Below, piece by piece: positions 45,765 to 47,471 of a stretch of 64,000 nucleotides of DNA. The position numbers were made by a program, and so were the translations under genes. Source of the stretch: Flavonifractor porci (lineage in GTDB: Bacteria; Bacillota; Clostridia; Oscillospirales; Oscillospiraceae); assembly GCF_037572415.1 (NCBI RefSeq), contig NZ_JBBHLB010000005.1, positions 150,050 through 214,049 of the forward strand, read 5' to 3'. The notes below the pieces were generated by a model. The model was not told the DNA's origin. It saw only the letters and a list, made by a program, of their open reading frames with translations, and did no database searches. Numbering within the stretch: position 1 is the stretch's first letter; every line of letters starts with the position of its first letter.

Positions 45765-47120
45765 ATGGCATTTACGATCACCAATTCTTACCTTCAGAGC
45801 GTGTATGACGGCGTCTGCAAGAAGAACTCCCATGAGCCCGAGTTCCTCCAGGCTGTAGGTGAGGTTATGGAATCCCTCCAGCCCGTGTTTAACCAGAAGC
45901 CCGAGCTGGCCAAGATGGGCATTATGGACCGCATGGTGGAGCCTGAGCGCAGCCTGTTGTTCCGTGTGTCCTGGGTGGACGATAAGGGCCAGGTCCAGGT
46001 AAACCGCGGTTACCGGGTGCAGTTCTCCACTGCCATCGGCCCCTCCAAGGGCGGCCTGCGCTTCCACCCCTCCGTCAACCTGTCCATCATCAAGTTCCTG
46101 GGCTTTGAGCAGGTGTTTAAGAACTCCCTGACCGGCCTGCCCATGGGCGGCGGCAAAGGCGGCTCTGACTTTGATCCCAAGGGCAAGAGCAGCAACGAGG
46201 TCATGCGTTTCTGCCAGTCCTTCATGACTGAGCTGCAGCGGCACATCGGTCCCGACACCGACGTGCCCGCCGGCGATATCGGCGTGGGCGCTCGTGAGAT
46301 CGGCTACCTGTTTGGCCAGTATAAGCGTATCCGCAACGAGTTCAACGGCGTGCTCACCGGCAAGGGCCTGACCTATGGCGGCTCTCTGGCCCGCACCGAG
46401 GCCACCGGCTACGGCCTGTGCTACTTTACCAACGAGATGCTCAAGGCCGCCGGCAAGTCCTTCCAGGGCCAGAGCGTGGTGATCTCCGGCTCCGGCAACG
46501 TGGCCATCTACGCCAACCAGAAGGCCACTCAGCTGGGCGGTAAGGTCATCGCCATGAGTGACTCCAATGGCTACATTGTGGACGAGAACGGCATCGACTA
46601 CAAGGTAATCAAGGAGATCAAGGAGGTCAAACGGGACCGCATCAAGACCTACCTGGATTACGTCCCCACCGCCAAGTATTACGAGGGCTGCCAGGGCATC
46701 TGGACCGTTCCCTGCGGCATCGCTCTCCCCTGCGCCACCCAGAACGAGCTGCCCCTGGAGGGCGCCAAGGCTCTGGTGGAGCACGGCTGCTTTGCCGTGG
46801 CCGAGGGCGCCAATATGCCCTCCACTCCCGAGGCGGTTGCCTGGTTCCAGGAGCACGGCGTGCTCTTTGCCCCCGCCAAGGCTTCCAACGCTGGCGGCGT
46901 GGCTACTTCCGGTCTGGAGATGAGCCAGAACTCCATGCGCCTGAGCTGGACCTTTGAGGAAGTGGACCAGAAGCTCCACGACATTATGACCAACATCTAC
47001 CACAATGCTGCCAAGGCTGCCGAGGAGTACGGTATGCCCGGCAACCTGGTGGCGGGCGCCAACATCGCCGGCTTCATGAAGGTGGCCGACGCTATGATCT
47101 GGCAGGGCGTGTCCTACTAA
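45765..47120 (+). CDS. gdhA: NADP-specific glutamate dehydrogenase
   Basis: [34 protein letters not shown]… is the typical GdhA N-terminus. Catalytic K motif [15 protein letters not shown] and a Rossmann GSGNVA. The start is at M36 of the tracked ORF. Confidence 0.9.
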
Positions 47121-47332
47121 GCAACGCCCCCTTATGCTGACTTTCCAAGGAGGGACGCGGCAGCGCCGCGTCCCTCCTTTTTCGTCGGCCACCGGGGCCC
47201 CATCAAAGATGGGGCGGCGCGCAAGCGCCGTACAAGCGTTTTACCGGCAGGCAAAACCTTAATGCCGGGCGGATTCATTCCGCCCGAGCAGCTCCAATCA
47301 TGGGGTCCCCAACCTGCCCCGCAGGTTGGGGC
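47121..47332 (+). repeat. copy C of the structured element family, inserted exactly after the gdhA stop, with its own intrinsic terminator
   Basis: Terminator GGAGGGACGCGGC-AGC-GCCGCGTCCCTCC plus TTTTT at 47149-47182. Core hairpin CCGGGCGGATTCATTCCGCCCG. CAATCATGGGGTCCCC followed by the palindrome AACCTGCCCCGCAGGTTGGGGC. This is the same orientation relative to the host gene as copies A, B and D. Confidence 0.7.
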
Positions 47333-47370
47333 TGGCCGACGCTATGATCTGGCAGGGCGTGTCCTACTAA
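47333..47370 (+). repeat. displaced, identical copy of the last 38 nt of gdhA including TAA (TGGCCGACGCTATGATCTGGCAGGGCGTGTCCTACTAA)
   Basis: Exact repeat of 47083-47120. It is followed by the ancestral gdhA terminator. Confidence 0.8.
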
Positions 47371-47379
47371 ACTTGAAAC

Positions 47380-47422
47380 AAAAATGGCACCCATCCTTTA
47401 CAACGGATGGATGCCATTTTTC
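47380..47422 (+). terminator. ancestral gdhA intrinsic terminator AAAAATGGCACCCATCC-loop-GGATGGATGCCATTTTT
   Basis: 14-bp stem with one mismatch, followed by a T run. Confidence 0.65.
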
Positions 47423-47471
47423 TTTATTTATGATATAATACCAGCATTCTGAGAAATACGAGGACTACTCT

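Follow-up and report, generated by a model that had tools for sequence, protein, structure and literature searches.

Organization of the gdhA locus

The 64,000-nt stretch of Flavonifractor porci DNA analysed here (the window) carries an intact gdhA gene on its forward strand (45765-47120), recognized by its translation, its ribosome-binding site and the Pfam family ELFV_dehydrog. The last 38 nt of this gene, stop codon included (47083-47120, +), constitute the 38-mer TGGCCGACGCTATGATCTGGCAGGGCGTGTCCTACTAA, which occurs exactly twice, the second copy lying at 47333-47370 (+) with 0 mismatches, when 0 are expected in shuffled sequences. In line with an earlier note on this DNA, 212 bp separate the two gene ends, and the parts listed there (terminator, core hairpin, GGGG-T motif and distal palindrome) were indeed all found within them; the whole gdhA cassette measures 250 bp. 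Three features had been missed: an antisense segment (T1'), a target motif, and an imported host 3'UTR inside what was called the element.

The repeat begins at 47083, within the in-gene target site T1 (GGTGGCCGACG, 47081-47091, +), at a junction matching the motif GGN|GG. T1 forms 11 Watson-Crick pairs with T1' and is conserved and covarying across gdhA orthologues. Downstream of the stop codon lies L1 (47121-47182, +), an imported gdhA-type 3'UTR, homologous to the gdhA UTR of loci L023, L026 and L108 and missing from the empty gdhA site L074. It ends in an intrinsic terminator, with a perfect 13-bp stem (47149-47161/47165-47177) followed by TTTTT (47178-47182) and a stability of -31.6 kcal/mol. 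This terminator had been ascribed to the element itself; it does belong to the inserted block, but as part of a host 3'UTR of the L023/L026/L108 type. Next comes T1' (CGTCGGCCACC, 47183-47193, +), a guide-like antisense segment complementary to 47081-47091, which makes the closing helix in the minimum-free-energy fold of this copy (z = -7.3 with the T1':T1 helix).

The family-specific hairpins follow. The predicted fold places two optional 5' hairpins at 47194-47229 (+), P0 (GGGG + CCCCATC/GATGGGG) and P(a) (GGCGC/GCGCC), a module that also occurs in the smc copy and in one subfamily of loci. The conserved core (47233-47290, +) comprises P(b) (47233-47261), a GAUGC-type joiner and P(c) (47263-47290). 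P(c) (GATGCCGGGCGGAT...TCCGCCCG) resembles a REP-like palindrome present in L108 (GATGCGGGCGGATG...CATCCGCCC). The last part (47291-47332, +) contains a joiner, GGGG-T with the terminal palindrome (47302-47331), in which the hairpin P(d) (47307-47331) has a stem sequence varying from copy to copy, and a 1-nt linker, variable across the family (1-3 nt). A 58-codon open reading frame (47262-47438), starting at the ATG of the GATGCC joiner, was rejected on reading as a scaffold-encoded small protein: its frame differs from that of the gene-end copy, and its conservation is that of paired covariation.

The second repeat copy (47333-47370, +) is the resident gdhA end displaced by the cassette, and adjoins the resident terminator as in L074. 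This terminator, L2 (~47376-47424), is a two-way hairpin with a T-run (-23.0 kcal/mol). The earlier note had called it ancestral, and it is indeed a real resident terminator, since the empty locus L074 has the same sequence (97% identity) directly 3' of its gdhA stop codon. A simple terminator scan missed the inner terminator and flagged the outer one on the minus strand only, and both stabilities were therefore computed directly.

Sister copies and host range of the family

A covariance model of the scaffold detected exactly four copies in the 64-kb window (E <= 1e-17), at 15098-15198 (-), 21860-21957 (-), 42821-42919 (-) and 47232-47331 (+). All four are in gene-sense orientation relative to their hosts (gdhA, smc, trmFO and rubrerythrin), in agreement with the earlier note, and three of them have clear gene-end repeats at a spacing of 220-250 bp. 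The copy after smc (15040-15324, -; host identified as SMC by Pfam) has repeats at 15262-15324 and 15040-15102 and T1' at 15230-15240; its repeats differ in nine codons, seven of them synonymously; the remaining two are junction codons, located where the repeat starts on its 5' side. After trmFO (21790-22075, -; GIDA/TrmFO family by Pfam), the repeats lie at 22010-22075 and 21790-21855 and T1' at 21989-21999. The copy after the rubrerythrin gene (42791-43040, -; host assigned by Pfam) has a 20-nt T1' (42921-42940), and its second gene end (42791-42817) is partial and diverged. Within this window, which belongs to one replichore, the gdhA copy is inverted with respect to the other three; orientation thus follows the gene and not the replication fork.

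Members of the family were found in more than 115 stretches from Oscillospiraceae species representatives, at about 45 different host genes, the carriers including Flavonifractor, Pseudoflavonifractor, Intestinimonas, Lawsonibacter and others. A full-text literature search returned no description of such an element, and these small structured elements of gut Oscillospiraceae have apparently been undescribed so far. A sense-strand stop codon lies between the first repeat and the scaffold in 82 of the 92 repeat-flanked copies, which bears out the directional, gene-end-specific insertion proposed in the earlier note. The repeat starts 12-106 nt ahead of the stop codon, with the target motif GGN|GG at the same distance, and sometimes extends to the end of the native terminator, i.e., the 3' end of the transcript. 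Each host has its own repeat sequence; repeat length ranges from 24 to 170 nt and varies even within one host gene, and smc is targeted at two different sites. Some copies form tandem arrays with a unit length of 195-260 bp. Plain P(a)-P(c) units, devoid of P(d), T1' and repeats, also occur as intergenic tandem repeats, and the core may hence exist independently of gene-end insertion.

A selected fold and a locus-specific antisense segment

The family-specific part measures 130-210 bp, with a scaffold of about 100 nt made of three to five simple hairpins. In the scaffold alignment, 98-99% of cells were paired, versus about 40% in slid controls, and compensatory double changes were observed in 23 of the 26 scaffold pairs, a level reached by none of 500 shuffles. 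The 97 distinct sequences of P(d) together contained 1060 Watson-Crick pairs, as against 50 G.U and 9 A.C. This excess of G.U over A.C indicates that the scaffold folds on the sense strand; it tells which strand folds, and not whether that strand is RNA.

T1' is an antisense segment of 8-20 nt, complementary to the intact in-gene site across the insertion point, its complementarity covering the start of the repeat. An exact complementary run of at least 10 nt between T1' and the intact site was found in 43 of 73 copies, when the same test gave 8/73 for repeat copy 2 and 6/73 for the control. Such complementarity is not a native property of gene ends in general, a possibility that we rejected on finding no excess at 489 scaffold-free gene ends (7.09 vs. 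7.09). Among orthologues of gdhA and of rubrerythrin, compensatory changes and wobbles moreover maintain the T1:T1' helix. These substitution patterns show that both the scaffold fold and the T1:T1' helix are under selection, on the sense strand in each case.

At some loci, T1'-like remnants lie downstream of copy 2, and two sites (L026 and L108) have T1' only. These can be accounted for only with extra assumptions, namely that arrays had a truncated last unit and that deletion between repeats took place afterwards. A snap-back origin of T1' (native 3' flank plus templated extension) is compatible with three hosts, rubrerythrin and gdhA among them, but not with L009; the remnants would be better explained by truncated distal units, as found in L030, L039 and L113.

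Empty sites, import and age

The earlier note had proposed to look for gdhA loci with and without the insert. L074 is a true empty gdhA site, with the same downstream terminator and a clean difference of exactly 250 bp; likewise, L050 is an empty trmFO site. Over 76 pairs of repeat copies, 212 codons differed synonymously and 97 nonsynonymously. Since differences are mainly synonymous, the two repeat copies look like functional alleles of different lineages, joined by import, and not like products of in-place decay. Repeat divergence, previously used as a clock, therefore does not date the insertion, and the claim that the gdhA copy is recent finds no support. Indeed, the element or a decayed remnant was present in all the gdhA relatives inspected, at protein identities down to 84%, except L117, where the contig stops just past the gdhA stop codon, and the association of gdhA with the element is therefore old.

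In accordance with import, the inner gdhA UTR and terminator are of the type of other lineages (L023, L026, L108), L074 having the outer terminator only, and GdhA shows a mosaic pattern across relatives. At informative sites in the final 600 nt of gdhA, examined with a view to precise insertion or extended recombinational import, L074 shows numerous private changes, and the gene itself is mosaic. For the gdhA copy of this window, no more would be needed than ordinary homologous recombination, using the gene as the left side and the 38-bp repeat as the right side.

Search for partner enzymes and known families

A linked enzymatic partner had also been suggested, and here the outcome was negative: clustering of 2,725 open reading frames from about 125 loci revealed no recurring reverse transcriptase, nuclease, recombinase or transposase near the copies, the recurring frames being host genes and spurious GC-rich frames only. 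None of these four enzyme types was identified by Pfam among the ten largest open reading frames of the window, and TnpA/TnpB was found neither there nor adjacent to the copies. No integrase was found in or beside any copy in the clustered loci, and across some 900 kb of loci no scaffold had a RAYT as its neighbour; L034 encodes a RAYT-type HUH transposase, with a different REP at its flanks.

Rfam gave no match at the gathering threshold in the 64-kb window, and only noise at E <= 10 in 46900-47600; a known RNA family was thus rejected. A scan for tRNA and tmRNA genes found none. Two scans of viral collections yielded no hits, and BLAST against phage and plasmid collections brought up nothing but a Pusillibacter replicon of 504 kb and MT838705, a bacterial contig under a wrong label, on which grounds a phage or plasmid origin was rejected. 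The family does not have the fixed terminal inverted repeats, matching those of a parent IS, or the fixed 2-10 bp target-site duplication of a MITE: its sole end-to-end inverted repeat is T1'/T1, host-derived and locus-specific, and its repeats range from 24 to >100 nt. Nor does it insert like IS200/IS605-type elements (PATE, TnpB guide RNA), which enter beside a fixed 4-5-nt site, make no target duplication and are oriented by the lagging-strand template, given its long duplications and an orientation that follows the gene.

Proposed explanation and alternatives

We propose, giving it an even chance, that the gdhA copy is a non-autonomous, guide-bearing gene-end cassette of an Oscillospiraceae family, inserted by homology and probably acting as RNA. 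The family part consists of T1' (8-20 nt) followed by the hairpins P0 and P(a) (both optional), P(b), P(c) and P(d) with GGGG. The moving unit would comprise the last 12-106 nt of the host gene, its stop codon, a donor 3'UTR, T1' and the scaffold, and would be placed in gene sense at a GGN|GG site complementary to T1', in front of the resident end of the gene. The host reading frame stays complete and the displaced resident end persists as the second repeat. In the window, a 250-bp cassette with the gdhA UTR and terminator of another lineage occupies the site that is empty in L074. The scaffold may act as RNA, co-transcribed with the host gene, with T1' pairing to the uninterrupted target, while the second gene-end copy would serve as the right-hand homology or priming segment and the gene itself as the left-hand one. 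Insertion would depend on homology, through either RecA-type recombination of incoming DNA or a cDNA made from the transcript, any dedicated enzyme being encoded elsewhere in the genome. This explanation does not cover the first making of a cassette with a new T1' for a new gene.

A bolder version, which we consider unlikely, is a natural RNA-guided retro-homing element following the logic of a self-copying prime-editing guide. Its transcript (gene end, UTR, T1', scaffold, gene end) would pair through T1' with the sense strand at GGN|GG, and an unlinked nickase/reverse transcriptase would nick the displaced antisense strand, whose 3' end would prime on the gene-end segment 3' of the scaffold. 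Reverse transcription would then write the scaffold, T1', UTR and gene end back into the chromosome, and template jumping between unit-length RNAs would produce the 1-3-nt linkers, head-to-tail arrays and truncated last units.

The same loci could also be read as a passive REP/BIME-like mosaic of extragenic palindromes in 3'UTRs, a passenger of ordinary homologous recombination with neither machinery nor RNA role, in which gene-end duplications and T1' would stem from rare template switching at terminator hairpins, fold-back copying included. The location at gene 3' ends, the hairpin-rich composition, the likeness of P(c) to the L108 palindrome, the RAYT-type transposase of L034 and the plain tandem P(a)-P(c) units are consistent with it, as are the failure to find a partner enzyme near copies at about 125 loci and the gdhA mosaic. 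The 212:97 ratio of synonymous to nonsynonymous codons in the repeat pairs likewise fits recombinational import. RecA pairing has a minimal length, which the minimum repeat (~31 nt) approaches. Random template switching would, however, hardly produce the same ordered architecture, scaffold boundaries and GGN|GG junction at about 45 independent hosts; T1' occurs only at scaffold-bearing sites and is kept by compensatory change, copies are always gene-sense, independently of the replication fork, and never form inverted pairs as in REPINs, and the sole RAYT seen is flanked by a different REP. We regard this passive origin as rather unlikely. Quite improbable, in our opinion, is a host regulatory 3'UTR RNA whose scaffold and T1' would pair with the coding end of their own mRNA and control its stability, its cleavage by RNase III, termination, or how the next gene is expressed, the duplicated end being a by-product of acquisition. 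The T1:T1' helix is indeed selected even where P(d) and copy 2 are lacking (L118, L122, L123, L108), the 20-bp rubrerythrin helix has the size of an RNase III substrate, and in smc-ftsY and trmFO-plsX the element sits inside an operon and must therefore be transcribed. Such a role would nevertheless leave unexplained the ~45 unrelated hosts, the tandem arrays, the presence or absence between close relatives and the many decayed copies, and the strong terminator ahead of T1' in gdhA and rubrerythrin would deprive most transcripts of T1'.

Direct gene-end repeats around an insert, with a restored gene, are a hallmark of elements integrating at the 3' ends of tRNA or protein genes, and the repeats could accordingly be attL/attR of a former integrase island, the 212 bp being a CIME-like deletion remnant. 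We hold this to be very improbable, in view of the same 100-nt scaffold at about 45 genes, each with its own repeat of 24 to >100 nt, the tandem arrays of 195-260-bp units and the lack of an integrase in or beside any copy at the clustered loci. Hardly credible is a pair of the diversity-generating retroelement (DGR) type, in which the in-gene copy would be the variable repeat and the downstream copy the template repeat for a reverse transcriptase. DGRs are frequent in gut Firmicutes, and two same-sense copies of a gene 3' end do lie within 250 bp; yet the differences between repeat copies are mainly synonymous and of all substitution types instead of adenine-specific, which effectively refutes it, the hosts are housekeeping genes, and no RT/Avd gene is adjacent.

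If the proposed cassette reading holds, a small bacterial element would choose its insertion site by a short programmable antisense segment and leave its host unharmed, since it supplies a spare gene end. Carrying its own right-hand homology segment, it could invade the corresponding gene of every related genome regardless of the downstream sequence. This would be a new strategy of genetic parasitism, with a natural counterpart of the guide, scaffold and homology-arm logic of engineered genome writing. From a practical point of view, the elements give rise to interspecies mosaics at the 3' ends of genes, as seen in GdhA, cause assembly breaks just past stop codons, and add or replace terminators. 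They also leave pseudo gene ends, which gene callers may mis-annotate in genera abundant in the gut, e.g., Flavonifractor, Intestinimonas and Lawsonibacter. Should even the least exciting alternative apply, the T1:T1' helix and the covarying scaffold still define a new candidate structured RNA, of which there are over 150 examples.

Comparison with known systems

Phages, ICEs, genomic islands and CIMEs integrate at tRNA, tmRNA and protein genes in a similar way, leaving the host gene intact and the displaced end as a far-side direct repeat, and direct gene-end repeats with a restored gene are indeed found here. Unlike them, the family has no site-specific recombinase or integrase in or near its copies at the loci analysed, and its insert is 130-210 bp of structured non-coding DNA. 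In place of a single att site it uses about 45 genes, whose repeats are gene-specific and variable in length, with an antisense segment for each target. With REP/BIME/REPIN-RAYT systems, it shares a 3' extragenic location, GC-rich hairpins, multiple copies in a genome, occasional tandem arrays and the likeness of one hairpin to a local REP. By contrast with their palindromes in inverted pairs, it displays ordered, distinct stems with conserved joiners in a single gene-relative orientation, a gene-end duplication and T1', and no RAYT flanked by family repeats was found in the ~900 kb of loci.

Retron ncRNAs are closed, as here, by a short 5'/3' inverted repeat (a1/a2) around several hairpins, the last of which is variable in sequence. 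In the family, however, this inverted repeat is host-derived and different at every locus, and the hairpins are followed by the host gene end and then by the next gene of the host, where a retron has its downstream reverse transcriptase gene.

Mobile group II introns offer an analogous, not homologous, use of target pairing (EBS-IBS; class C behind terminators), as the target of the family is apparently chosen by pairing of a short segment, T1'. Sense orientation, frequent proximity to terminators and selection on an RNA-level fold are further likenesses. The ~100-nt scaffold differs in having no six-domain ribozyme (no domain V), intron-encoded protein or Rfam match; insertion creates a 24-170-nt duplication instead of being seamless, and pairing lies mostly downstream of the junction.

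Finally, although no nickase or reverse transcriptase is known for the family and the likeness is one of form only, its topology is that of a pegRNA, with a 5' segment complementary to one target strand, a scaffold, and a 3' segment complementary to the first. A further difference is that the primer-binding site of a pegRNA lies at its extreme 3' end, after the template. Variable-length duplications, 1-3 variable nucleotides at a junction, head-to-tail arrays and truncated units are, in turn, typical of R2/LINE target-primed reverse transcription with template jumping.

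Anatomy of the Gene-End Element

The perfect 38-bp duplication of the gdhA end around a 212-bp element, reported in the earlier note, was confirmed, as was every part listed there; the antisense segment T1' and the target motif described below had been missed. In the window the 38-mer has exactly two occurrences, 47083-47120, at the end of gdhA (45765-47120), and 47333-47370, with 0 mismatches and a chance expectation of none. The 212 bp between these repeats contain a 13-bp perfect stem followed by TTTTT (-31.6 kcal/mol), the core hairpin and a GGGG-T-CCCC...GGGG terminal palindrome. 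A strong promoter-like site (ATGCCA, 17 nt, TG, TATAAT) at 47411-47439 overlaps the 3' half of the resident terminator, upstream of a gene for an FAD-dependent protein (47472-49055), and locus L026 of another genome is arranged likewise.

A covariance model retrieved four copies and no more from the 64 kb, each with E <= 1e-17. They follow the host genes smc, trmFO, rubrerythrin and gdhA, which were identified by Pfam, and an independent repeat search found three gene-end repeat pairs with near-equal spacing (220, 222 and 250 bp). From these four and about 170 copies of other genomes, a common layout was derived in gene direction: gene ... T1-T2-stop, spacer L, T1', the hairpin scaffold [P0] [P(a)] P(b), GAUGC, P(c), AGCAGAUAAAA.., then GGGG-Y, P(d)...GGGG, 1-3 nt, and T1-T2-stop again. 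L spans 0-70 nt across the family: an entire 3'UTR, intrinsic terminator included, in gdhA and rubrerythrin, and 6-16 nt in smc and trmFO. P(b) and P(c) are near-invariant in sequence and their variable positions covary: pairing holds in 98-99% of cells, with double compensatory changes in 23 of 26 pairs, while none of 500 shuffles matched the observed values and slid partners fell to about 40% paired. P(d) keeps a constant CCCC/GGGG base and its remaining stem varies freely; its 97 distinct versions comprise 1060 Watson-Crick pairs and 50 G.U, with only 9 A.C, so it is on the gene-sense strand that selection acts on the fold. Units are commonly arrayed in tandem, 2-3 at a time, a 3'-truncated unit often trails the last full one (L030, L039, L113), and T1' remnants were seen in L078 and L019.

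Gene-End Specificity and Orientation

The directional, gene-end-specific insertion at the core of the earlier interpretation is supported and extended. A sense-ORF stop codon lies between the start of the first repeat and the scaffold in 82 of 92 repeat-flanked copies, vs 24 of 92 for opposite-strand ORFs, and the duplication starts 12-106 nt, mostly at least 31 nt, before the end of the stop codon. All four window copies are in sense orientation relative to their host. Since GC skew is negative across the entire window, the latter lies within one replichore. There, gdhA and its element point the opposite way to the other three copies; element orientation thus tracks the gene and not the replication fork. 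Two lineages carry the smc insertion at different positions: GGCGTCAGCC is the occupied site in the window, and GAGGCCGACGT that in L034. These represent independent insertions into one gene.

The second trmFO copy (21790-21870, minus strand) reads ...LDVEGR* vs ...LDVE* in the working gene. The second rubrerythrin copy (42700-42817, minus strand) runs on, still in frame, through a long tail of unrelated sequence; in L001, gene calling places a 52-residue ORF downstream of rubrerythrin. These ends encode C-termini that differ from the working copies, and cassettes can therefore alter a protein C-terminus. Near tRNA genes, whose 3' ends adjoin some scaffold copies (L006, L025, L029, L106, L109, L014), P(d) and the repeat are replaced by another 3' module (..GGRGTGGAGCGARCAAAGYGAGCGGAACCCAAA) or by a terminator that directly ends the scaffold.

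A Target-Matching Antisense Segment

Immediately upstream of the scaffold, T1' is the reverse complement of the gene where the duplication begins. In gdhA, T1' CGTCGGCCACC (47183-47193) has the in-gene partner GGTGGCCGACG (47081-47091), and the whole element is predicted to fold with a 9-bp T1':T1 closing helix enclosing five hairpins (-100.3 kcal/mol, z = -7.3); in rubrerythrin, T1' is perfectly complementary over 20 nt. The mean longest exact complementary run was 9.8 nt against the intact in-gene site, vs 7.2 against the second copy and 5.8 against another element's site, and runs of at least 10 nt were found in 43, 8 and 6 of 73 cases, respectively. Typically extending from -6..-2 to +5..+14, T1' crosses the boundary of the repeat and hence matches the uninterrupted gene. 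At 489 scaffold-free gene ends there was no excess of such complementarity (7.09 observed vs 7.09 control), compared with 9.92 (control 7.18) at scaffold-bearing ends; T1' is not a general 3'UTR feature of these genomes.

Among gdhA orthologues, two independent double changes affect the helix (C.G to G.C in L119, G.C to A.U in L122), L123 keeps the pairing via wobbles, and variation in the 20-bp rubrerythrin helix is almost solely G.U. Judging by these substitutions, the T1:T1' helix is maintained in evolution. The in-gene junction consensus, from 45 distinct host genes, is G G N | G G, with G at each of the four positions in about 65%; on the second-copy side, 1-3 variable nt separate the P(d) GGGG from the repeat.

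Occupancy, Import and Age of the gdhA Locus

Loci with and without the insert were compared, as the earlier note had proposed, and an empty site was found. In L074 (Flavonifractor sp. AGMB03687), gdhA has 94% nucleotide identity and an identical C-terminus, and its stop codon is directly followed by the terminator that trails the second copy in the window (97% identity), leaving a single clean 250-bp insertion in the window. The inner UTR and terminator have homologues in the gdhA UTRs of L023, L026 and L108; in L023 this UTR stands on both repeat copies and the repeat extends to the end of the terminator U-tract. Because its outer terminator is L074-like and its inner one resembles other lineages, the window locus is an L074-type site holding another lineage's cassette type. 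Elsewhere, gdhA carries a full element with compensated T1' (L119), a full but decayed one whose second copy is about 77% identical (L120, Lawsonibacter celer), T1' and part of the scaffold lacking P(d) and the second copy (L118, L122, L123), or T1' only (L026, L108). The T1'-only sites would be leftovers of repeat-mediated deletion in an array whose final unit is truncated. Down to 84% GdhA identity, all relatives examined have an element or remnant, except that L117, whose contig ends just after the stop, could not be scored; the gdhA association is therefore old. An empty state was also found for trmFO, which overlaps the start of plsX in L050.

The 76 distinct repeat pairs show 212 synonymous and 97 non-synonymous codon differences (2.2:1), where random change would give about 1:3 and a live copy against a freely decaying one about 0.7:1. 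Both copies, then, were mostly shaped by evolution as functional gene ends in separate lineages and joined only afterwards. Three further points fit this: T1' matches the first copy, the UTR of gdhA in the window is a hybrid, and GdhA is a recombination mosaic among close relatives. Compared with the window gene, protein P0001 is near-identical over about 395 residues before its last 55 diverge, only a middle block diverges in P0002 and only the N-terminus in P0007. The P0001 contig (L117) ends 19 nt past the gdhA stop, as expected of an assembly break at a repeat. This indicates that the first copy, L, T1' and scaffold move as a block, the second copy being the resident end. With alleles joined from different lineages, repeat identity is no clock, and the earlier suggestion that identical flanks mark a recent copy is unsupported: the perfect 38 bp do not demonstrate recency. 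Adjoining topA, the window also encodes dprA (25692-26915, minus strand), a recombination mediator for incoming single-stranded DNA that bears on cassette spread by uptake and recombination; dprA is widespread, and its presence is no evidence of competence.

Possible Mechanism

The data establish a structured sense-strand element with a target-matching antisense segment and a junction motif, as well as cassettes that pass from one related genome to another and enter the same gene there, with occasional capture of a new gene and formation of arrays. This anatomy is unusual, is well supported by more than 150 copies, and leads to a specific, testable proposal of guided insertion at gene ends, to which we give an even chance. 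The scaffold would act as RNA, and must be transcribed in smc-ftsY and trmFO-plsX since it lies inside an operon; T1' would pair with the uninterrupted target, the second gene-end copy would serve as right-hand homology or priming segment, and insertion would then be homology-dependent. To account for the window's copy, ordinary recombination between incoming and resident DNA would suffice, with homology supplied by gdhA to the left and the 38 bp to the right. Repeats reaching the transcript 3' end, 1-3-nt linkers, head-to-tail arrays and truncated last units are compatible with a reverse-transcribed intermediate and template jumping. The search for a linked enzymatic partner suggested in the earlier note found no reverse transcriptase or nuclease linked to the copies.

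Passive spread of a repeat by recombination alone is considered less likely. Still less weight is given to a host regulatory RNA, to relic att sites and to a DGR-like pair.

Neighboring Repeats and Other Window Features

REP-like palindromes (GGCCGATGCCCTCATCGGCC, GTAG/CTAC-type ends) adjoin elements just after the second trmFO copy (21760-21800, minus-strand reading), in L108 (5720-5830), where one resembles P(c), and in L034 (4170-4740). In L034, an ORF for a RAYT-type HUH transposase with HIH and Y motifs also lies between the second smc copy and ftsY; a REP of its own (GGCGGGATGACCTCATCCCGCC) flanks it. A second repeat family (L007, L011, L021, L024, L028, L090, L100; other Oscillospiraceae MAGs) shares only P(c) and an AGCAGATCAAA tail; its upstream part differs (GCGAAGCGCGGTCAGCGCGAGCCGCCCGCCGGGGGCGGGCG...), it is often tandem, and gene-end repeats are missing. 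Several repeat families may share P(c) as a module.

The window further encodes a 2094-residue surface protein (32609-38893, minus strand) with GH84 beta-N-acetylglucosaminidase, F5/8 type C, Big_4, fn3, Flg_new and SLH domains. Two diverged direct repeats inside a large ORF region (55956-56709; 468-bp spacing; 167 nt at 73% and 94 nt at 77% identity) suggest a duplicated protein domain, and 15-18-nt periodic repeats (GGCGGC/CTTCTT-rich) at 23369-23501, at the 3' end of the topA ORF (23355-25676, minus strand), probably encode a low-complexity Lys/Ala-rich tail.

Comparison With Known Systems

The family had no match in Rfam and was absent from phage collections, where the sole database match was a mislabelled bacterial contig; the plasmid collection gave one match only, a 504-kb Pusillibacter replicon. 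The phage-database contig, L128 (MT838705.1, 'UNVERIFIED: Bacteriophage sp.', 1-2011), looks bacterial, with RF3 (prfC), a tRNA gene and SLH/Flg_new surface proteins, and opens on a tandem pair of P(a)-P(b)-P(c) units devoid of P(d), T1' and gene-end repeat. Full-text literature searches turned up no description of such an element. The element shares gene restoration and flanking repeats with 3'-end-targeting islands, target choice by pairing with group II introns, 3' extragenic hairpins with REP/BIME, a closing inverted repeat with retrons, and topology and junction features with target-primed retroelements and pegRNAs, but fails a defining test of each. On these grounds it is provisionally classed as a new kind of element.
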